DNA of 10,493 bases from Nitrosopumilaceae archaeon (GTDB taxonomy: Archaea > Thermoproteota > Nitrososphaeria > Nitrososphaerales > Nitrosopumilaceae). Numbering within the stretch: the first letter of the stretch is position 1; every line of letters starts with the position of its first letter. The DNA is taken from assembly GCA_050749225.1 (NCBI GenBank), contig JBOGQR010000051.1, positions 1-10,493 on the forward strand, read 5' to 3'. Made by a program: the position numbers and the translations under genes. Below, one piece after another: positions 1,024 through 10,127 of this stretch. The notes below the pieces were generated by a model that ran no database searches, had not been told where the DNA came from, and saw nothing but the letters and a program-made list of their open reading frames with translations.

Positions 1024-4000
1024 TTATTTTATCATTCCATTTGCATACAGGTACTTGACAGCATTCACAAATTCCTGTTCTGTCATTTCATCATTTACAA
1101 CCCACTTGGTTGTCTTCATCATCCAAGATGGTATGTGATTAGCTTTAATTCCAAGTTTTGATAATAGTTCAGAATCTGAAATAGAAGTTGGAGTATAACC
1201 TCCCCATTCTTTTATTACAGTTATCAAATCTGTTTGGTTTGAAGCAGTGGATTGCGGTAGTATTGCAGGCTGTATTTGGATAACTGAGTTATTATCATTC
1301 ATATTTGATCCTACAACCTGCCACGCATTTGATATGTATGTATCCGCAGAATACAAGTCGGATCCCCATGTTCTAACTATGATATCAGATGTTGGCATTG
1401 GATTTGCAAATGTTATATCAACATCAAGCTCAAACTTGCCGTCACTTGTTTGTGTCGGATTGGCAGAGGCAGAACCAAAGAAGTTGTGCGGATCAACTAT
1501 TGACAGTTGCGAGTTTCTATCCCATGTTATCATAGTATCGCTGTCTCCGATGTTTCTTTTGTTCCCATACAGATCAGTGAAGAGTGTTACATGTTGAACA
1601 GATGACGGTCCACTGTCCCCATAAAGGAAAATTTTCAGAACAATCGACTTGCCTGTATGAATCACTTGTGTCTGTACTGGACTATTTTGATAACTGTCAA
1701 GATTAATGCCTGTTCCATTAATTACCAACGGATATCGGTTTGGTGCAAATCCTACTGTAAAGGAAGGTGCAAAGCCAGGTGTCTTGTCACCTTTACTTGT
1801 TGATGGTACAAACAAACCTCCCGGATCAGATATGATACCATTTGCCAGACCATCAGCATCTCCCAAGCCGCCATCTGTTATGCTTATCGTCATAGTATTG
1901 CCGCTTATTCCAGTAATTAGTGAAGAGAGGTTAGTCCAAGTTCCTGTCGAGAATTTCCAATATTGAGCATTTGAAGGAATTGTAGAAGGGAAGCTAAAAG
2001 TTATTGGTACTTTCTGTCCTATGACAAGACCTGTAATCTTCCAAGAAAACAGTCCGTATGGGAATTTTCCTGATGGAATATCTGAGGTTGCAAGGTTTGA
2101 GGTAGATATCGCACTAAGATCAGATATTGAATTTGGTGCAGAGATTCCAACAATGCCAGCATCATTTGATGCAGGTATCAACATTGGGGTTAGCACTGAT
2201 GATGATCCACCATTACTGCTACTAGGACCACTGTATACAATATTTGTATCCACAATAATTCTAATTACTTGAGTAAGTGATGGGTTTTCTTCCACGTATA
2301 CCTGTTCAAAGAGATGTCCTTCATTTGTTACCTCAAAGACAAGATTCCAGTTGTATGATGTAATATCACATGTTTTGTTAAAAGACACCCCCATAGATAC
2401 CCCACTTACAATAGTGTAATTGTATCCACTAACTTTTGATTCAAATTCAGATGAATTCTGGGCAAGCAGTATTGCTTTGGTCTGATTAAACAAAGATGAG
2501 AGTTGTCTGGTTTGCATTTCTAATTTATGCATACAATCTAAGAGGTCAAATGGAGTTGTGGAATTTACAGCGTTTGAGAAATATACTGTGGAATTGGTAT
2601 AATTTTTCAAGAAGAATGTGGAACCGGTGGAATTTGAGAACGATAATTTGGAATTGCTAAAGTTTGAAAGTGATAATGTAGAATTACTAAAGCCTGAAAA
2701 AGACAGAACCGCATTATCAAAATTTGAAAAAGACGGAGACGAATTGCTAAAACCAGAAAGAGACAGTAGTGAGTTACTAAAACTTGAATTTCCGACTATA
2801 AATGGCAACACAAGAGATGGAGAGAGTTGAATGGGATTATCAATAGATTTTATTATATAAATTTGAGCAATATATCCTCCGCTGGTAACAAGTGTCAATG
2901 ATTGTGCTGGATCAAGGGACTGGTGAGGTGTAAGGGTTCCTGAAATCCAAGAAGCATCTATCACATTCCCATTCTTGTCCAGAATATTAACAAGATATGT
3001 AAATGGCTGATTACTATTCTCACGATTTGTGATTTGGGCTGTTATTTGGATTTGTTGATTTGGATAGATTGATGTCAATGTGTTGCCAAGAGAATCTACC
3101 AATCTTGGATATCTAGAGTCCACAGTGCTTGGTGTAGAAGAATTTGTAGTCGTATTTGAAGTAGCATTATAGTTGAATGATAAATTGTTTTGTAGTGTTC
3201 CACCATATTCTACCATGATAGTATAATTTCCCGTTACTCTAAAAAGTGGGCCACCGGCTTTGATGACTGTAGAGAATGTACCATTACTTGTAACATTTGC
3301 TTGCACAATTTGAACAAAATTATGATTTGGATCAAGAATCAATAGTATTGCTGTTCCACCTTGGATAGGTGTATTCACAATACCAGAGAGAGAAACTGGC
3401 GTAATATTATAACTAATAGATCCTCCGCCCTCAACTACTATCGTTGTCGCAAGTGGTTGAGAAAGTGGCAATGGATTATCGATACTTTGTAAGACAAAGA
3501 TTTCAGCAGTGTATGTACCAGACGTATGAGGTGTCCATGATTGTGCTGGAGTGAGTGTCTGATTGGCAGTCAATGTACCAGTAATCCAAGACAGTGATAC
3601 TGTTACTCCATTTTGATCTTGGATTTGCACTAGATATGCAAATGGCTGATCCCTATTCTGATTGTTAGTCAAGTCAGCAGCGATTTGCATCTGCTGTCCT
3701 GCAATAACTGGACTTGTAATTGTATTACCAAACGAGTCAACGATTCTTGGGTCAGATGCCGATACTCTTTCAGGCGGAGGGACAATACCGACTAATGTTG
3801 TAGATGTCAATCTTAACTGATAAGCTGGTGTGTATGGAGCGGGCAGTGTTCTATCTTGGTATTCACCAGTGACTGTGTCACCTTCTGCTACGTGTAATCT
3901 GTTACCTGAAGACTGGAAGTTCGTTGTAAAGTACACTGTACCTTGGAAGATTCCAGTGTTTGATCCAGTTTCAGTCATGTTGAATTTGATACCGCCAGAA

Positions 4001-5370
4001 TCAGAGTCAGACCAAGTATTTGTGTAAAACCTGTCTATTGCATTTGGATTGAGGTTCATGTCTGGATCTACTATTTGTAATACTCCTTGACCGTTAGACG
4101 GATAGCTTGATTCTAACCAAGTTACATTACCGACATTCCAATGAATTGGTGCGAAAGCAACAACCGTTTGGTTTAGAGTTTGAAACGATACAGATATTCC
4201 ATCACTGTCTTGTGATGGAAGTAATCCATCATTTGGTCCAATTCCTGATGGTCCTGTACCTGTTGGCTCTGTACCTTGACCATCAATACCTCCTACACCC
4301 TTGATCAGCGGATTACCTGTTAGAGTGACATAACCGGTGAAGTTACCTGTATTGGGTCCTGTCTCTATTAACTTGTATTGTGATATGGTGTGACCTCTTG
4401 TCGATATTGTTATTTTGCTTGTTGTGGTGTTGCCAATTATATCGATTTTGGTTGGATCAAGATTTTGATCTGGTGCGATTACAGTTATGTTAACCCGGTT
4501 AGTCCACGTGTATGATGTTTTGTCTAGTTCAACTATATTTTGTATAGGCAGTACTTGGGCATTATTAATTACATAAGTTGTTGCATTAAGTCTTAATTGA
4601 TCAGCTTGTGCATGTAGTGCAGGTAACGTTCTGTCGGTGTATTCTCCAATAATCGTGTTATTTCCTGAGGATATATGCAATCTGTTACCTGATGAAGTAT
4701 CATTGGTAAAGTCGACCGTGCCTTGAAAGATTCCTGTATTTGATCCAGTTTCAGTCATCGGTATTAAGACACCTGCAAAATCAGAGTTTGACCAAACTGG
4801 AGTAAAGAACGAATTTGTAGCATTTGGATTGAGATGCATATCTGGATCGATTATCTGTAACACCTTACTGCTTGGTGTATGATCTGAAGGTAACCAAGTT
4901 ACCTGACCAACATTCCATCTGATCATTGCTAGTGAACCAGTTGCATTATGGTCTTGAGTTTGAAATAAAACCGATATACCATCACTATCTTCTGCTGGCA
5001 ATAATCCATCTGTTGGACCGATTCCAGATGGTCCAAGACCACTTGGATTAGTACCATTTCCATCAACACCGACAGGACCTTTTAGGGTTGGATCACCAGT
5101 AAGGGTAACATAACCAGTGAAGATTCCAGTATTTGGTCCTGTCTCCACTAACGCATAAGGTGAAATGGTATTACCTCGGTCAGATATTGTTATTTTGTTT
5201 GTGTCGTTATTGCCGATTGTTTCGATTTTGTTTGAATCAAGATTTTGATCTGGTGCGGTTACAGTAATTTTGACTATGTCAGTCCATGTGTATGGCGACT
5301 TGTCTAGCTCAACTATAGGTGTGATAGCTGCAGCATTATATGTTGAAAATGATGCGATACAGACCAACAC
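1024..5370 (-). CDS. Very large secreted cell-surface protein (adhesin / S-layer-like), multi-domain beta-sandwich repeats, probably heavily N-glycosylated
   Basis: Uninterrupted 1448-codon ORF. N-terminal hydrophobic signal '...IFILSLLAVLVCIASFSTYNAAA|ITP' (extends upstream of the GTG at 5370, see findings). Two 260-aa tandem modules carry recurrent 'ETG(P/S)NTG(I/N)F(T/Q)G' and 'DPD(M/Q)NL(N/D)P' motifs. Duplicated ~110-aa domain ('QPFAYLVQIQDQNGVTVSLSWITGTL' / 'QPFTYLVNILDKNGNVIDASWISGTL'). FSNS low-complexity tract. Domain ending 'TISITDGGLGDADGLANGIISDPGG'. C-terminal 'IPSWMMKTTKWVVNDEMTEQEFVNAVKYLYANGMIK'. Many N-x-S/T sequons throughout. Confidence 0.9.
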   Translation of the reverse strand: MLVCIASFSTYNAAAITPIVELDKSPYTWTDIVKITVTAPDQNLDSNKIETIGNNDTNKITISDRGNTISPYALVETGPNTGIFTGYVTLTGDPTLKGPVGVDGNGTNPSGLGPSGIGPTDGLLPAEDSDGISVLFQTQDHNATGSLAMIRWNVGQVTWLPSDHTPSSKVLQIIDPDMHLNPNATNSFFTPVWSNSDFAGVLIPMTETGSNTGIFQGTVDFTNDTSSGNRLHISSGNNTIIGEYTDRTLPALHAQADQLRLNATTYVINNAQVLPIQNIVELDKTSYTWTNRVNITVIAPDQNLDPTKIDIIGNTTTSKITISTRGHTISQYKLIETGPNTGNFTGYVTLTGNPLIKGVGGIDGQGTEPTGTGPSGIGPNDGLLPSQDSDGISVSFQTLNQTVVAFAPIHWNVGNVTWLESSYPSNGQGVLQIVDPDMNLNPNAIDRFYTNTWSDSDSGGIKFNMTETGSNTGIFQGTVYFTTNFQSSGNRLHVAEGDTVTGEYQDRTLPAPYTPAYQLRLTSTTLVGIVPPPERVSASDPRIVDSFGNTITSPVIAGQQMQIAADLTNNQNRDQPFAYLVQIQDQNGVTVSLSWITGTLTANQTLTPAQSWTPHTSGTYTAEIFVLQSIDNPLPLSQPLATTIVVEGGGSISYNITPVSLSGIVNTPIQGGTAILLILDPNHNFVQIVQANVTSNGTFSTVIKAGGPLFRVTGNYTIMVEYGGTLQNNLSFNYNATSNTTTNSSTPSTVDSRYPRLVDSLGNTLTSIYPNQQIQITAQITNRENSNQPFTYLVNILDKNGNVIDASWISGTLTPHQSLDPAQSLTLVTSGGYIAQIYIIKSIDNPIQLSPSLVLPFIVGNSSFSNSLLSLSGFSNSSPSFSNFDNAVLSFSGFSNSTLSLSNFSNSKLSFSNSTGSTFFLKNYTNSTVYFSNAVNSTTPFDLLDCMHKLEMQTRQLSSLFNQTKAILLAQNSSEFESKVSGYNYTIVSGVSMGVSFNKTCDITSYNWNLVFEVTNEGHLFEQVYVEENPSLTQVIRIIVDTNIVYSGPSSSNGGSSSVLTPMLIPASNDAGIVGISAPNSISDLSAISTSNLATSDIPSGKFPYGLFSWKITGLVIGQKVPITFSFPSTIPSNAQYWKFSTGTWTNLSSLITGISGNTMTISITDGGLGDADGLANGIISDPGGLFVPSTSKGDKTPGFAPSFTVGFAPNRYPLVINGTGINLDSYQNSPVQTQVIHTGKSIVLKIFLYGDSGPSSVQHVTLFTDLYGNKRNIGDSDTMITWDRNSQLSIVDPHNFFGSASANPTQTSDGKFELDVDITFANPMPTSDIIVRTWGSDLYSADTYISNAWQVVGSNMNDNNSVIQIQPAILPQSTASNQTDLITVIKEWGGYTPTSISDSELLSKLGIKANHIPSWMMKTTKWVVNDEMTEQEFVNAVKYLYANGMIK
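2548..2790 (-). repeat. Imperfect ~30-nt coding tandem repeat encoding an S/N/F-rich tract (FSNSxLSLSx units)
   Basis: aa 861-941: 'NSSFSNSLLSLSGFSNSSPSFSNFDNAVLSFSGFSNSTLSLSNFSNSKLSFSNSTGSTFFLKNYTNSTVYFSNAVNSTTPF'. Repeated DNA units such as 'gaattgctaaa' / 'gaattactaaa' / 'gagttactaaa'. Dense N-S-S/T sequons. Confidence 0.7.
3787..5325 (-). repeat. Tandem in-frame duplication, period exactly 780 nt (260 aa), two copies inside the large CDS
   Basis: Copy 1 is aa 16-275 (4546..5325) and copy 2 is aa 276-528 (3787..4545). The 'VELDK' Val codons lie at 5313 and 4533, exactly 780 nt apart. Long near-identical DNA stretches, e.g. 'tttgatccagtttcagtcat' in both 4739-4758 and 3959-3978, and 'caagattttgatctggtgcg' near 4458 and 5238. 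Confidence 0.85.
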
Positions 5371-5403
5371 AGCAAGTAATGAAAGAATGAAAATTTTGTT
5401 TAT

Positions 5404-5423
5404 GTTTTCAACCTCTATATAAT
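5404..5423 (-). promoter_or_regulatory. Candidate TATA-like box (minus-strand 'attatata') and SD-like GAGGT upstream of the large gene
   Basis: The minus strand reads '...ttaatattatatagaGAGGTtgaaaacATAaacaaaatt'. GAGGT (5415..5411) lies 7 nt upstream of an in-frame ATA (5403..5401). The A/T-rich box is at 5416..5423. No experimental support. Confidence 0.3.
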
Positions 5424-5616: not shown

Positions 5617-6618
5617 TTACTTAGAGAATTTATCAGAGGATCTATTGAGTTGTGGGAACCGGTCAACGGCTGTAGCAGATTCGCCTCCTCCAATTATGTT
5701 TCCCGTCTTTGAATCAACAAAATATGTAAAAGAAAATATTTTCCAATTTCCAGACGTAATCCAAACAAATTGTTTAATTTTTTCCGGTTGTAAATATTTT
5801 TGATTATAATGATTTATTACTATTGTTTGATTAAATTTGATAGCATTATGGTTTTCATCTAAAGTATAAAGCAGAAAATGTGGAATATTGTCTGTGGTTG
5901 TGAGATATCTTAAAAATCCCAGAATTGCTCTAGTATCATAATGGTTTGTATCATTTCTAAATTTAATTACCCCATCAGAAGCTTGCTCTTCGGATACGAA
6001 TTGGTTCATTGATAAATTCCAATTACGTTCTACAAGACGTTGTGCTGTTTCCTGACTTACACAAGCAGGAAATTCCTTCTCAGATTTTATTATAATGATA
6101 AAACTCTCTTTACATTGAATATCTTTAGCAGAAATTCCAGATTTGAATTGTTTTAATGGTAATGACATTGGTGGCTTTTCTACCGCAAGACATTCTTTTC
6201 CCTTCTCATAAGGGTCTGGGTGTACATCAAGTACCAATCCATATTCAATTTCAATTTCTTGAGTGTGACCCATCGGTACATCAAAGTGTAAAATTCTTCC
6301 ATTGTCAGTAAACTGTTCATAATAATTAGTTGGCGTCTCTCCATCCAAGAATACAACTGAATGATCTGGTTTACAATTAGAATCTGCAACATACCATACT
6401 TTCTTTGGTATGTTTAGAGTAATAGAGCCATCTTTGTCCATAGAAAAATTGACAATTATCACAGGCAAGTTACCTTCGATGTGAATCCTGTCAATAGTAC
6501 CTCCTTCTATTTGGTAAGTGATTTTTGGTTCAGAATTTTTAATATCGGCAAAAACACTTGGAGATAAAATAATTACAACTATTAGTGATATTATGATTAT
6601 ACAAAACAAGTAATTCAT
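5617..6618 (-). CDS. Secreted hypothetical protein (333 aa) with beta-sandwich-like N-domain and a two-Cys 'PLKQFKSG...C...PACV...ERNW' module
   Basis: ATG start at 6618. Signal peptide 'MNYLFCIIIISLIVVIILSPSVFA|DIKN'. The module 'LPLKQFKSGISAKDIQCKESFIIIIKSEKEFPACVSQETAQRLVERNW' is shared with the 6960..8399 product. The N-domain 'ITYQIEGGTIDRI...GSITLNIPKKV...VVFLDGE...GRILHFDVPMGHTQEIEIEYG' is paralogous to modules in the neighbouring genes. Confidence 0.85.
   Translation of the reverse strand: MNYLFCIIIISLIVVIILSPSVFADIKNSEPKITYQIEGGTIDRIHIEGNLPVIIVNFSMDKDGSITLNIPKKVWYVADSNCKPDHSVVFLDGETPTNYYEQFTDNGRILHFDVPMGHTQEIEIEYGLVLDVHPDPYEKGKECLAVEKPPMSLPLKQFKSGISAKDIQCKESFIIIIKSEKEFPACVSQETAQRLVERNWNLSMNQFVSEEQASDGVIKFRNDTNHYDTRAILGFLRYLTTTDNIPHFLLYTLDENHNAIKFNQTIVINHYNQKYLQPEKIKQFVWITSGNWKIFSFTYFVDSKTGNIIGGGESATAVDRFPQLNRSSDKFSK
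6107..6150. repeat. Perfect 44-nt inverted copy of 7470..7513 (inside the two-Cys module of two paralogues)
   Basis: The reverse complement of 6107..6150 is 'caattcaaatctggaatttctgctaaagatattcaatgtaaaga', which equals 7470..7513 exactly. Flanking codons are diverged. Confidence 0.9.
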
Positions 6619-6698: not shown

Positions 6699-6761
6699 CA
6701 ATTTATCAGTAATCTCTAATAGCAATGTTATTTCATAACAAACACGAAAAGACTACATCTT
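6699..6761. repeat. Left arm of a 63-nt inverted repeat covering the TATA-like box, a conserved ATG and the first ~12 codons of the + strand gene
   Basis: 'caatttatcagtaatctctaatagcaATGttatttcataacaaacacgaaaagactacatctt' against the reverse complement of 9916..9978: 57/63 identical, with a perfect 29-nt core (6703..6731 = rc 9946..9974). Weaker similarity continues upstream (ctgtaagaatcc 6681-6692 vs ctgtaggatcc, rc of 9989-9999). Confidence 0.9.
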
Positions 6762-6959
6762 TCAATAATTATAATTCTCAGTGGAATTCTTGTTATTACA
6801 AACAATCTGGCATTTGCCGATAATACGAATCAACACGTAATTATTGATGGAACTATTTCTCAAGAAGGCTGTAATGTCATAAATGGTACTATAACACAGG
6901 CAACTGACATACAAAACACAACAATCCAGTTATGTAATTATCATGACAAACACTTCAAA

Positions 6960-8399
6960 TTGTCTGCAACAACCGGTTGTATCTTAGTCGGTGTTGGGAA
7001 TACAAAAGATCCTGAAACAGGACACAAGTATGCATTTAATGTCATATGTGATGTACCAACTACATGTGGTCTAAAAAACTCATGGGGTGATCACAACATG
7101 GGTAATACGGATTATCTTGATGCAACATCAGTTAATGGAACTCATTTCATTATTACCACAAATTATGGATGGGGTGTGTGTGCATCAGAATCATACAATG
7201 AACAAGAAAAAAAAGCAACTATAATTGTAAACGGTTTGTGGGATAATGATACAGTTGTTAATGTACTAATTCCAAAAGTGCTTCTTGGAAATACATTGGT
7301 AACAGTGGATGAGAAGAAAATAACTCCTGATATCATCGATCATCACCCTTCTAATACCACTCTAGTTTGTCCATTGTGCTATTATGAGATGAATATGCAT
7401 CTGCCTTTTTCATCTGCATCTAAAAAAATTGAGATTGGAGCCCAATCCATTCCTGATACTCCGCTAAAGCAATTCAAATCTGGAATTTCTGCTAAAGATA
7501 TTCAATGTAAAGAAGGTCTTGTATTGATAACTAAAACATCAGACAATTTTCCAGCTTGTGTGAAAACACAAACAGCACAGAAGCTTGTTGAACGTGAATG
7601 GGGTTCTATGGTAATTCCCAATGGTTTATTCTATAATGGTACAGGAAGGTCTACTAAAGGAACAATGGTAGTGGATAACACAAACTACACTGTAAACTAT
7701 AGAATTACGAATGCTACGATTCTAAATGTTAAGGAGGATGTGCAAGATAAAGGTCTGATGGTCTCGATAAAGGCAGATGACATGGGGGTGTTAACAATAA
7801 CTATTCCAAGATTATTATTTAATTTTGATATTTCAGATGCACAATGGCAGAGTTGGCATATCCCTGGTCACTACTGGGCAACGAACGATGGCACACGCAA
7901 CGAACAATTCCAAGAGATTAACACTACCTCAACCGACAGAACTTTTTTTATCCACTTTTCAAAGGGAACTAAAGAAATGGAAATTTTTAGACCACTGCCG
8001 CTCATATGTTTGTCTGGTAATACTATGATTGACACCCCAAATGGTGCTACGAACATAAAGGAATTAAAAGTTGGAATGCGTGTGTGGACATTAGACGATC
8101 ATGGTTACAAACAGTCGGCAGTAATTTTGAAGACACAGAAAACCCAAGTACCTTCAATGCACACTATGGTTCACATTGTTTTAGTTGATGACAGAGAAGT
8201 ATTTGCATCCGCCAAACATCCAACAGCAGATGGCAGATTAGTAGAAGTATTGAAAATTGGAGATATTCTTGATAATACAAAAATTAAAACCATTGAACTT
8301 ATTTCGTACAATGAAAACTATACTTATGACATTTTGCCATCTGGTCCAACAGGATTCTATTGGGCTAATGGCATTCTAATTGGAAGCACCCTAAAGTAA
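6960..8399 (+). CDS. Secreted Cys-rich protein with two beta-sandwich-like modules, a two-Cys PLKQ...PACV module and a C-terminal Hint domain (coordinates use the first canonical start, TTG 6960; the true start is probably upstream)
   Basis: The frame is open from 6723. Between 6723 and 6960 it encodes a textbook signal peptide, 'NTKRLHLSIIIILSGILVITNNLAFA|DNTNQ', but has no in-frame ATG/GTG/TTG. The mature part contains 'TPLKQFKSGISAKDIQCKEGLVLITKTSDNFPACVKTQTAQKLVEREW', '...GVLTITIPRLLF...DRTFFIHFSKGTKEMEIF', then the Hint domain. TAA at 8397-8399. Confidence 0.85.
   Translation: MSATTGCILVGVGNTKDPETGHKYAFNVICDVPTTCGLKNSWGDHNMGNTDYLDATSVNGTHFIITTNYGWGVCASESYNEQEKKATIIVNGLWDNDTVVNVLIPKVLLGNTLVTVDEKKITPDIIDHHPSNTTLVCPLCYYEMNMHLPFSSASKKIEIGAQSIPDTPLKQFKSGISAKDIQCKEGLVLITKTSDNFPACVKTQTAQKLVEREWGSMVIPNGLFYNGTGRSTKGTMVVDNTNYTVNYRITNATILNVKEDVQDKGLMVSIKADDMGVLTITIPRLLFNFDISDAQWQSWHIPGHYWATNDGTRNEQFQEINTTSTDRTFFIHFSKGTKEMEIFRPLPLICLSGNTMIDTPNGATNIKELKVGMRVWTLDDHGYKQSAVILKTQKTQVPSMHTMVHIVLVDDREVFASAKHPTADGRLVEVLKIGDILDNTKIKTIELISYNENYTYDILPSGPTGFYWANGILIGSTLK
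7470..7513. repeat. Partner of the perfect 44-nt inverted repeat (6107..6150)
   Basis: Base-by-base comparison. Encodes 'QFKSGISAKDIQCK' in both genes. Confidence 0.9.
8007..8396 (+). other. Hint (Hedgehog/intein-like, BIL-type) autoprocessing domain, 130 aa, at the extreme C-terminus
   Basis: Block-A-like 'CLSGNTMIDTPNGATNIKELKVGMRVWTLD' with Cys1 at 8007-8009. Block-B-like 'FASAKHP' ((T/S)-x-x-H). C-terminal strands 'YTYDILPSGPTGFYWANGILIGSTLK' followed by the stop. No His-Asn and no +1 nucleophile or extein. Confidence 0.75.
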
Positions 8400-8517: not shown

Positions 8518-9915
8518 CTAACTAACATGAATTACATGACTAAATGTATTACCGCCATCTGTACTTATCCTTAGAAATATTCCATGAATATCTCCTCCAC
8601 TATCTCCTGCCAAATAGATCTTGTCACCTGACGATACTATCTGTAAATTTCTGATTCCAACATAATCTCCGTTGTCTTGATTTAGATCAATAGGAACACT
8701 GAAAGTTTGCCCGCCATCAATACTCGTTGTAAAAAATATTTGTTTATGAAAGACTGGTGTTGTTGAGCTCTGTTCCCAAATAGCATACAGTTCATTTTCA
8801 GATAATATTCCTACAGGAGAAAATGGAAGAGCCTCCTTAATGTATTGAGTAATATTGATTGTTTTATCAAAGGTGCTTCCACCATCAATGCTTTTTCTCA
8901 ACACAATTTGCTCACCATTGGAATCATCACTGTTCCACTTTACGTAAACGCCATTTTGTCCATATGCAAGAAGTTGAGAAAACCATGTGCTTGCAGTTCC
9001 ATTATTCAATTTTGTCATCTTATCAAAAGTGAGTCCTCCATCTATGCTTCTTGTAAAAAACAGATCATTTCTGGTCTTGTTAGCTCCTTCAACAAGAACA
9101 TACACTTTATTACCTGATGCTGCAATTGATGCGTCTGATAGATAGATGCTACCGGTCAAATTTAGTACGCTGCTAAAGGTTTGACCATTGTCTGAACTTT
9201 TCCTAAAAAGTACACCAGTATACATGCCTTGGCTGATTTCCTTGCCTAGTCCAAGCGTGTAAATATTTTTGCCAGAAATTGCAAGTTTTAGAAAATTCCG
9301 ATCAGAGTATGGCTCTCCATACAGGTCAACAGTTTTTCCAAACGAATTACCGTTATCAAAGCTTGACCTGAGGATAATGCCATTATTAATTGGATAACCG
9401 TTACTGTCTTTGTTTGCATTATACAATATAGCGTGCAAATCATTCTCATTGAGAAATATCGAGGTACCAGCTGAAATCCCATCACCATCCTTTAGTAGAG
9501 TGACATTGCCAAAGGTAATTCCGCCGTCAATACTTTTTCTGATAAAAGTGTGTCCACCTCCAAAATCATCCCATGTCAAGTATAATGTATTATTTTTTGC
9601 AACTATTGCTGGGTGATAGATAACATCATAACCACGAGTCAGATTAATTATTCTGTTAAAAGAGAATCCGTTATCAGTACTTGTTCTGAGCAGAACAGAA
9701 TTATTTTTAGATGTTGAATTTTCTTGTTGCCATAACACATACACATGGTTTCCAGACACTGCCACTTGAGTGATAAAAGCTGTCGTTGAAGGAGGCTTAG
9801 ATATCCCCCCAATAGGTAAATGTTCCTGTTGAAACGGCAATATTGGTTGTGCAGATTGTGAAAATACAATAAAAAATATTATCGTTAAAGCAACTCCAAT
9901 CGGAAGCGCGATCAA
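8518..9915 (-). CDS. Secreted or membrane-anchored BNR/Asp-box repeat beta-propeller protein (sialidase-fold-like, function unknown)
   Basis: Eight S-x-D-x-G-x-(T/S)-F Asp-boxes: STDNGFSF, SIDGGITF, SFDNGNSF, SSDNGQTF, SIDGGLTF, SIDGGSTF, SIDGGQTF, STDGGNTF. They are spaced ~45-60 aa apart, each preceded by a 'G(N/K)xVYVxW'-type strand. N-terminal hydrophobic segment 'IALPIGVALTIIFFIVFSQSA|QP'. The start shown is TTG 9915; the frame is open up to 9954. Confidence 0.9.
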   Translation of the reverse strand: MIALPIGVALTIIFFIVFSQSAQPILPFQQEHLPIGGISKPPSTTAFITQVAVSGNHVYVLWQQENSTSKNNSVLLRTSTDNGFSFNRIINLTRGYDVIYHPAIVAKNNTLYLTWDDFGGGHTFIRKSIDGGITFGNVTLLKDGDGISAGTSIFLNENDLHAILYNANKDSNGYPINNGIILRSSFDNGNSFGKTVDLYGEPYSDRNFLKLAISGKNIYTLGLGKEISQGMYTGVLFRKSSDNGQTFSSVLNLTGSIYLSDASIAASGNKVYVLVEGANKTRNDLFFTRSIDGGLTFDKMTKLNNGTASTWFSQLLAYGQNGVYVKWNSDDSNGEQIVLRKSIDGGSTFDKTINITQYIKEALPFSPVGILSENELYAIWEQSSTTPVFHKQIFFTTSIDGGQTFSVPIDLNQDNGDYVGIRNLQIVSSGDKIYLAGDSGGDIHGIFLRISTDGGNTFSHVIHVS

Positions 9916-9978
9916 AAGATGTAGAGTTTTCGTGTTTATTATGCGATAACATTGCTATTAGAGATTACTGATAATTTG
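9916..9978. repeat. Right arm of the 63-nt inverted repeat (5' region of the minus-strand BNR gene)
   Basis: The reverse complement reads 'caaattatcagtaatctctaatagcaATGttatcgcataataaacacgaaaactctacatctt'. Similarity to the left arm ends exactly where the two hydrophobic signal-peptide cores begin. Confidence 0.9.
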
Positions 9979-10102: not shown

Positions 10103-10127
10103 CGTAGTCTCTATACAGATTACGAAG
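10103..10127. repeat. Second copy of the conserved hairpin 'cgtagtct-ctatac-agattacg-aag'
   Basis: Same 8-nt left arm, same 6-nt loop length and the same 'tacgaag' 3' end as 8433..8457. The stem keeps pairing through a G.U-compatible change. An adjacent small hairpin 'agac-tctatg-gtct' lies at 10087..10100. Confidence 0.45.

Follow-up and report, generated by a model that had tools for sequence, protein, structure and literature searches.

How is translation started in two genes that have no canonical start codon in front of their signal peptides, and whose only upstream ATG lies one nucleotide out of frame? This question is raised by a thaumarchaeal contig, JBOGQR010000051.1 of a soil ammonia-oxidizing Nitrosopumilaceae archaeon (10,493 nt, GC about 35%), which in its entirety is the window analyzed here and to which all coordinates refer. 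Two convergent genes for secreted proteins lie in it, flanked by the arms of an inverted repeat. With high confidence, our analysis places an ACG at the homologous start position of both genes, and indicates that the upstream ATG is not the start and that no frameshift is needed to account for the frame. Either translation of the genes begins on a non-standard codon, or their start has been lost. Taken as a whole, with the non-AUG initiation included, near-cognate initiation on a leaderless or short-leader mRNA is the best reading of the locus, and we rate it an even bet.

The two 64-nt arms (6699-6762 and 9915-9978) are 91% complementary, are spaced by 3152 nt and differ at 6 of 64 positions. 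They share an identical 29-nt core, TTATCAGTAATCTCTAATAGCAATGTTAT, which is found twice in the window, with none expected from 200 shuffles. Between them lie a 551-codon open reading frame (ORF) on the + strand, ending at 8399, and a 471-codon ORF on the - strand, ending at 8518. The sole ATG of each arm (6725-6727 on the + strand; 9952-9950 on the - strand) is located 19 nt, or six codons plus one nucleotide, 5' of the signal-peptide frame, and is thus +1 out of frame with it. The signal-peptide frame itself is closed upstream by a TAG (6720-6722 on the + strand; 9957-9955 on the - strand), which in the + arm follows an in-frame TAA at 6717-6719. The first canonical in-frame start of the - gene is TTG 9915, at codon 7, and that of the + gene is TTG 6960, at codon 73 counted from ACG 6744; between TAG 6720 and TTG 6960 the + gene has no canonical in-frame start, and none that preserves N-terminal function. 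The features of the locus are as follows.

6699..6743, + strand: upstream module of the + gene, with box 1, box 2, the out-of-frame ATG and TTCATA; repeat arm with the identical core; homologous modules stand at equal distance before the xKTLHL genes of the related loci L013, L017, L006 and L046
6700-6709, + strand: box 1, AATTTATCAG, at -44..-35 from the ACG
6714-6722, + strand: box 2, CTCTAATAG, holding the in-frame TAA and TAG, at -30..-22 from the ACG
6725..6823, + strand: out-of-frame ATG ORF of 32 codons with stop TAA 6821-6823; its peptide is unrelated to that of the other copy past codon 13, and neither L013 nor L017 has an ATG at this place
6732-6737, + strand: TTCATA motif, containing an in-frame ATA
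6735..6737, + strand: in-frame ATA at -9, ranked second as a possible non-AUG start, or else the point where transcription begins, from comparison of the -9 codons
6744..6746, + strand: ACG at the family start-codon position, the proposed near-cognate start, aligned to ATG (L002, L007, L008, L009), GTG (L006, L046) and TTG (L052)
6744..6818, + strand: Sec-type signal peptide (T/M)KRLHLSIIIILSGILVITNNLAFA with predicted cleavage before DN, from the translation; it matches MKTPYYFIIVIVSAGIIITNNLVFA/DN of the protein P0003, by inspection and homology only
6744..8399, + strand: intact ORF of 551 codons and stop for a secreted protein with a C-terminal Hint domain, from translation, domain match and dN/dS
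6960..6962, + strand: TTG, the first canonical in-frame start, used by gene callers; the 72 preceding codons are under purifying selection
8518..9933, - strand: intact ORF of 471 codons and stop for a secreted BNR/sialidase-like repeat protein; relatives such as P0041 begin MKTLHLSIML
9797..9952, - strand: out-of-frame ATG ORF of 51 codons, from the ORF list
9913..9915, - strand: TTG at codon 7, a possible fallback canonical start giving MIALPIGVALTIIFFIVFSQSA, from the in-frame codon listing
9931..9933, - strand: ACG at the family start-codon position, from the homology alignment
9934..9978, - strand: upstream module of the - gene, the second repeat arm, with the identical core

A sequence-only reading of this stretch had pointed out the lone out-of-frame ATG in each arm, the closure of the main frame by TAG and the lack of a canonical start up to TTG 6960 in the + gene, all of which our codon listing bears out. 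Its length for the ATG-frame ORF is correct in the + copy (32 codons), while the about 48 codons given for the - copy are 51 by our measurement. The five substitutions that it listed between the copies, and the way they read in both frames, are as it described; its argument that they weakly favor the ATG frame is weakened, as the stretch upstream of 6744 is probably non-coding. Its likening of the ATG geometry to that of the clean gene 5617..6618 is weak, with the AATTTAT box at -25..-19 from the ATG versus -27..-21 there. The 32-codon ATG ORF at 6725..6823 is in all likelihood no gene. Scans of the contig against Rfam and for tRNAs gave no matches.

Both proteins have homologues in Thaumarchaeota from soil and freshwater. 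These homologues are exported and many begin MKTLHLSIII, and the family 5' end is conserved in nucleotides as ATG/GTG/TTG-AAA-ACT-CTA-CAT-CTT (MKTLHL...). Where L002-L005 read ATGAAAACTCTACATCTTTCAATAATTATAATTCT, the window reads ACGAAAAGACTACATCTTTCAATAATTATAATTCT. In a tally of about 20 family 5' ends that were not retrieved by searching for ACG, the homologous codon is ATG in about 15, GTG in two (L006, L046) and TTG in three (L052 twice, P0004). The ACG codons at 6744-6746 and 9933-9931 match this position base for base and are one base off AUG. Each is followed by a Sec-type signal peptide, KR-LHLSIIIILSGILVIT-NNLAFA/DN in the + protein and K-TLHLLIALPIGVALTIIFFIVF-SQSA/QP in the - protein, recognized by inspection and alignment to exported relatives. 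The signal-peptide frame thus lacks a start and the upstream ATG falls out of frame because ACG occupies the family start position. The ATG is a non-conserved triplet within the promoter/initiation region, 19 nt into the upstream region. An orthologue check of the BNR gene on the - strand was uninformative, with its closest relatives at no more than 33% identity and too distant for comparison.

Several observations were made on the family alongside. The first 18-35 nt are near-identical across different family genes and genera. The family forms tandem arrays (L013 at 5236; L017 at 430 and 2829; L048 at 5057, 5773 and 11428; L052 at 948, 4260 and 5316), in which internal genes have an ATG directly after, or overlapping, the preceding stop; members with their own promoter often have weaker starts (GTG, TTG, ACG). 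Public gene calls are misplaced in two relatives: that of P0002 (L008 107-125) sits 18 nt downstream of its ATG-AAA-ATC-CTA start, and that of P0020 (L052 2941-3001) sits 60 nt downstream of TTG-AAA-ACT-TTG-CAT-CTT, cutting off the signal peptide. P0020 was considered as a further missing-start case and ruled out, as the TTG is present at the family position.

To analyze the distribution of the ACG form, an exact scan for the ACG 18-mer ACGAAAACTCTACATCTT was run on genome and metagenome collections. Three relevant matches were found, in a groundwater metagenome-assembled genome (MAG; L013), a Nitrosotalea MAG (L017) and a soil metagenome contig (L024). In these other samples ACG-AAA-ACT-CTA-CAT-CTT likewise heads open exported-protein ORFs, of 376, 197 and more than 148 codons, respectively. 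The remaining matches, all outside Thaumarchaeota, were set aside as chance occurrences in unrelated organisms, with short ORFs. A scan of viral contigs for the ATG and ACG 18-mers gave chance matches only, and an exact scan of the genome contig collection, which does not include the source genome, gave none for the 19-nt promoter core.

The upstream region recurs together with the codon. Box 1 reads AATTTATCAG in the window, AATTTATTAG in L013 and CATTTATCAG in L017; box 2 reads CTCTAATAG, TCTAAAGATAAA and CCCTAAAAG, respectively, and is followed after about 20 nt by the ACG, at equal spacing. In about 150 kb of thaumarchaeal loci, the box-1 motif A[AT]TT[AG]T[CTA]AG[CT]AA occurs seven times. 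Six of these occurrences stand before xKTLHL/xKTLQL genes, at a distance of 42-48 nt, and none of the six genes has ATG at the start position (ACG in four, GTG in two). ATG-type members have unrelated promoters or occupy internal positions in tandem arrays. The ACG-type modules have common proximal blocks (AGCAWTG; TTTCATAWCAAA) that are absent from GTG-type modules, which suggests that ACG was passed down across genomes and did not originate several times. The inverted repeat is therefore two copies of a family 5' module, comprising the promoter and the first six codons, placed before different gene bodies, and no recombination site built for switching.

The module core can also be read as a peptide tail with a stop: TTT ATC AGT AAT CTC TAA in the window encodes FISNL and a stop (6702-6722), and the corresponding tails are FISNI in L013 and FVSNQ in L006. 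In L017 (1560-1700), the core really is where an upstream PEF-CTERM protein gene ends, with YRIKSISFISKP and a stop. The module may have descended from a junction between tandem family genes. That the core is a relic of an upstream gene (FISNL with two stops in frame) was considered and rejected for the window, L013, L006 and L046; as these loci have no upstream ORF, a DNA-level promoter element is the simpler view.

Both ORFs are stop-free at about 35% GC, and the start codon is the sole lesion that would mark them as pseudogenes. For the + gene, the ratio of nonsynonymous to synonymous substitution rates (dN/dS) is 0.16 versus L009 and 0.26 versus L008 over codons 2-72, and 0.27 and 0.14, respectively, over codons 73-250; values of 0.16-0.27 mostly reflect ancient history. 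The low dN/dS upstream of TTG 6960 means that, through virtually the whole past of the gene, translation has included the signal peptide and the first 47 mature residues, so TTG 6960 is not the true start. In a neutral-decay simulation that assumes the genes untranslated since the arms diverged (0.047 substitutions per site per lineage), both ORFs stayed stop-free in about 0.6% of trials (~0.006), which speaks against a long period of inactivity.

We then propose a model for expression of the two genes. The 64-nt repeat is a duplicated 5' module of a large thaumarchaeal family of exported proteins, and the mRNAs would be leaderless or carry a leader of about 9 nt. On these, initiator Met-tRNA may start on a near-cognate codon, with ACG as the first candidate and the in-frame ATA at -9 as the second. 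The product would be a normal Sec signal peptide made at low efficiency, and the weak start may act as a throttle on secreted-protein expression. This model agrees with the suggestion of the sequence-only reading that a non-AUG codon is used on a leaderless transcript, although the best codon, ACG 6744 / 9933, is one that it had not named, and the ATA codons that it had (6735 / 9942) come second.

The placement of box 2 at -30..-22 from the ACG, together with its equivalent in GTG-type relatives, which begins at about -32 from the GTG, favors a leaderless transcript with ACG at its 5' end. No Shine-Dalgarno-like sequence is present at the module. Box 1, the stronger A/T box AATTTATCAG 14 nt upstream of box 2, implies a different 5' end: it lies at -33 from the in-frame ATA (6735; 9942) and predicts a 5' end near -9..-15. 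The in-frame codon at -9 is ATA in both arms, ATC in L013 and ATG in L017. In the ATG-type L007, TTCATA stands at the equal position and is followed by an in-frame TAA; in that locus it is a motif of the DNA, not a start. Thaumarchaeota are a plausible setting for such transcripts, as 11 of 11 analyzed members were classed as leaderless-prevalent, the distance between box and start being about 26 nt (PMC6028130). In archaea, start codons are selected with the help of aIF1, aIF1A and aIF2, which are eukaryote-like factors (PMC7531240), and in Haloferax volcanii about 30% of newly mapped initiation sites are at near-cognate codons (PMC7261190).

It is tempting to go one step further. In Nitrosotalea-like Thaumarchaeota, ACG (or a 5'-terminal AUA) could be a genuine initiation codon kept by selection on leaderless mRNAs, tied to a promoter module that always bears a weak start (ACG or GTG) and limiting some exported proteins to low or conditional expression. 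If so, this gene family would be the first in archaea to be naturally ACG-initiated; we offer the proposal tentatively, as possible rather than probable.

A number of points weigh against non-AUG initiation at this locus. Only AUG, GUG and UUG are established as archaeal start codons (PMC7531240), and the 5' end of the transcript would carry none of them, since ACG stands at the start position and ATA at -9; in bacteria, leaderless mRNAs are more AUG-selective than leadered ones (PMC8459731). The codon's status as a candidate comes from sequence. A self-trained position weight matrix drifted when run over 67 upstream regions, without a sharp peak at any position, and was not used to place the transcript start. 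ACG is rare: the genome and metagenome collections gave only the three relevant matches, a frequency that would suit a mildly deleterious allele. Four of the five genes of the ACG type have a canonical in-frame start within 8 codons (ATG at -4 in L017, GTG at -4 in L024, ATG at codon 8 in L013, TTG at codon 7 in the - gene), so only the + gene strictly requires a non-canonical start. The ACG might have come from a 2-nt deletion in a CAC-GTG ancestor instead of from ATG. The neutral-decay argument is moderate and based on six differences; gene conversion between the arms could recently have spread a dead start, and a recent short conversion tract would void the argument.

These points lead to the rival explanations, among which start-codon loss remains live. 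By this account an ancestral ATG or GTG was destroyed, by T>C or by a 2-nt deletion in CACGTG, and the loss spread between the arms by gene conversion, so that both genes are silent recent pseudogenes in a variable island beside an integrase. The rarity of ACG at the family start position in public data and the 72 codons of the + gene without a canonical start speak for it, as do the identical 29-nt core, which suggests recent conversion between the arms, a tyrosine recombinase about 2 kb beyond the window, and a third secreted-protein gene on the contig that also has no canonical start before its signal peptide. However, both ORFs are fully intact in an AT-rich genome, the ACG has been retained in arms that diverged at 6 of 64 positions, where the simulated joint survival is so low, and intact ORFs also follow the ACG-type modules of L013 and L017, which have diverged much further. 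We regard start-codon loss as the main rival, less likely than near-cognate initiation but serious. A less probable account is that the nearest downstream canonical start is used in each gene, TTG 9915 on the - strand and TTG 6960 on the + strand, as public annotation calls both ORFs. In the - gene, TTG 9915 is only six codons past the ACG and would leave a hydrophobic N-terminus (MIALPIGVALTIIFFIVFSQSA), but the positively charged n-region (K) would be lost. The + protein would be deprived of its signal peptide and of 47 conserved residues of the mature part, a stretch that has a dN/dS of 0.16-0.26 versus L009 and L008 and aligns lengthwise with P0002 and P0003; for the pair of genes we consider it improbable.

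The other explanations concern the sequence itself, the frame and the repeat. If the true base were T at 6745 and 9932, both starts would be ATG. A single transition does separate both sites from CATG, CATG is less frequent per kb and CACG more frequent in this contig than in related ones, and the third gene shows ATA where ATG might be expected (context AACATAAAC). The window is the reverse of MAG contig GCA_975323085.1 CDICRC010000152.1 (13,440 nt), which continues for 2.9 kb more, and the two have 0 mismatches over all overlapping bases (10.5 kb; the two assemblies may not be independent). The same base thus stands in both arms and in both records, 42 intact CATG sites are left in the contig, and the 1448-codon ORF is unbroken. 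Because ACG recurs at the homologous codon in three contigs from other samples, whose names suggest short-read assemblies, and because the window is identical to the MAG contig, a sequencing or assembly error is very unlikely. Programmed +1 ribosomal frameshifting from a leaderless ATG at 6725 or 9952 into the signal-peptide frame, which the sequence-only reading had raised, could invoke the presence of the ATG in both arms, its position about 20-25 nt downstream of an AATTTAT box, and TTT_C at 6731-6734, where a +1 slip of tRNA-Phe would be allowed in the + copy; any shift would be confined to 6725-6747. In the - copy, however, the slip site is TCG (TCG_C) and falls where the arms differ, the zero frame offers no stimulatory stop or rare codon, and the ATG frame has no stop before 6821. 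The 5' RNA folds are unremarkable versus shuffled controls (z -0.65 to -1.9). The ATG itself is replaced by AAGG in the module of L013 and by TTG in that of L017, which has in-frame ATGs of its own. With an unconserved ATG and a slip site in one copy only, frameshifting is not supported; the offset is fully and more simply accounted for by ACG at the family start position, and we give frameshifting hardly any credence. The arms might also be recombination sites for the nearby integrase, a 3.2-kb flip switching the expressed gene, as 64-nt inverted repeats flanking two convergent genes and a tyrosine recombinase gene on the same contig would invite one to think. Yet the arms coincide exactly with the promoter and N-terminal module, which occurs singly in other genomes. 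Both arms have the same promoter elements, ACG and frame, so an inversion changes nothing; since they are also equal in length, recombination between them creates no in-frame ATG. The alternative orientation is not seen in either record. An invertible segment is thus highly improbable, and silent cassettes that need rearrangement, as the sequence-only reading had put it, are not supported in that form.

Start anomalies are not confined to the two genes. A 1448-aa S-layer-like gene (ORF 1024..5370, - strand) has no canonical start before its apparent signal peptide (5367-5409). Its frame reads TAA..ATA(5403) AAC AAA ATT TTC ATT CTT TCA TTA CTT GCT GTG(5370), that is, a stop and then YYIEVENINKIFILSLLA-V-LVCIASFSTYNAAA, and the first canonical start, GTG 5370, lies inside the hydrophobic core. 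With a AAAATTTT box at -27..-20 from GTG 5370, a short GTG-started signal peptide is possible. Comparison with the closest relative, L051, did not place the start, as the 5' ends are too diverged. In total, three of six complete genes on the contig have the missing-start anomaly, and all three are secreted; when related contigs were scanned as a control (about 100 kb), the ACG gene of L013 was the sole convincing case.

The gene bodies and their surroundings have features of their own. A second inverted repeat (137 nt, 75% complementary) lies at 6019-6155, in the - strand gene 5617..6618, and at 7465-7601, in the + gene; both genes encode a SPLKQFKSGI..C..G..L..K......ACV...TA.KL.ERGW domain that recurs in many otherwise different family architectures. 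The + protein ends in its Hint domain (CLSGNTMIDTPNG ... ILIGSTLK and stop; 7990-8399), with nothing after. Proteins whose N-terminal parts are unrelated have this Hint module in common at 60-71% identity, which suggests an autoprocessing module shuffled among thaumarchaeal exported proteins. A palindromic element, CTTCGTA(A/G)TC..TATAG..GACTACG(C/T)AAG, is located upstream of the - gene at 10103-10127 (- strand), with further non-coding copies beyond the window (L001 2000-2020 and 2277-2301) and another upstream of the ACG-type gene of L013 (about 6450-6480; fold z = -3.05). Past the right end of the window, L001 1-2560 encodes a 482-aa tyrosine recombinase (Phage_integrase) at the contig end. 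Next to it comes a non-coding stretch of about 1 kb in which AGCT / GCTAGC / CAGCT motifs abound and which contains three copies of a 44-nt unit (ATTCAC...AGCTTAGTTAAC). The window may lie within an integrated element.

Either way, the out-of-frame ATG is explained without any recoding mechanism. If ACG or AUA does initiate, the accepted archaeal start set of AUG, GUG and UUG would grow, and leaderless initiation in a TACK archaeon would be seen to tolerate near-cognate codons as eukaryotic scanning does, which bears on the evolution of eukaryote-like start selection. If the genes are dead, they exemplify ordinary start-codon loss in a fast-evolving family. Gene callers truncate such proteins; in the + protein the signal peptide is lost together with 47 mature residues. 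Genes of this kind are therefore missed when the secretomes of ammonia-oxidizing archaea are predicted. The lead that remains is the ACG-type 5' module, conserved across genomes before intact secreted-protein genes.

Compared with known systems, the locus resembles a shufflon or invertase switch in having inverted repeats and a Phage_integrase-family gene about 2 kb beyond the right arm; it differs in that promoter and start lie inside both arms, so inversion leaves expression unchanged. With programmed +1 frameshifting (prfB, antizyme, Ty1) it has in common a long ORF that has no start of its own and is preceded by an ATG offset from its frame by one nucleotide, but a conserved shift site and a stimulatory zero-frame stop or rare codon are absent here, and the ATG is unconserved in homologous modules. 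In plant organelles, C-to-U RNA editing turns ACG into an AUG start. There too a genomic ACG stands at a conserved start position before an intact, conserved ORF; this is an analogy only, and no mRNA editing system is known in archaea. The likeness to leaderless archaeal mRNAs consists in the A/T-rich box CTCTAATAG at -30..-22 from the ACG and the lack of a Shine-Dalgarno-like sequence, whereas the 5'-terminal codon would not be AUG, GUG or UUG and box 1 predicts another 5' end. The locus would work most like near-cognate initiation, for which it is a candidate by its sequence. Near-cognate starts include the ACG of AAV VP2 and of Sendai C' in eukaryotes and the AUU of bacterial infC. The present case differs in that ACG is not established as the start of an annotated archaeal gene, and in that the mRNA probably has no leader or hardly any, and such messages are regarded as particularly AUG-selective (PMC8459731). 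It agrees with them in having a codon one base from AUG at the start position of its relatives, with an intact ORF behind it, and in belonging to a domain of life whose initiation factors are eukaryote-like (PMC7531240).

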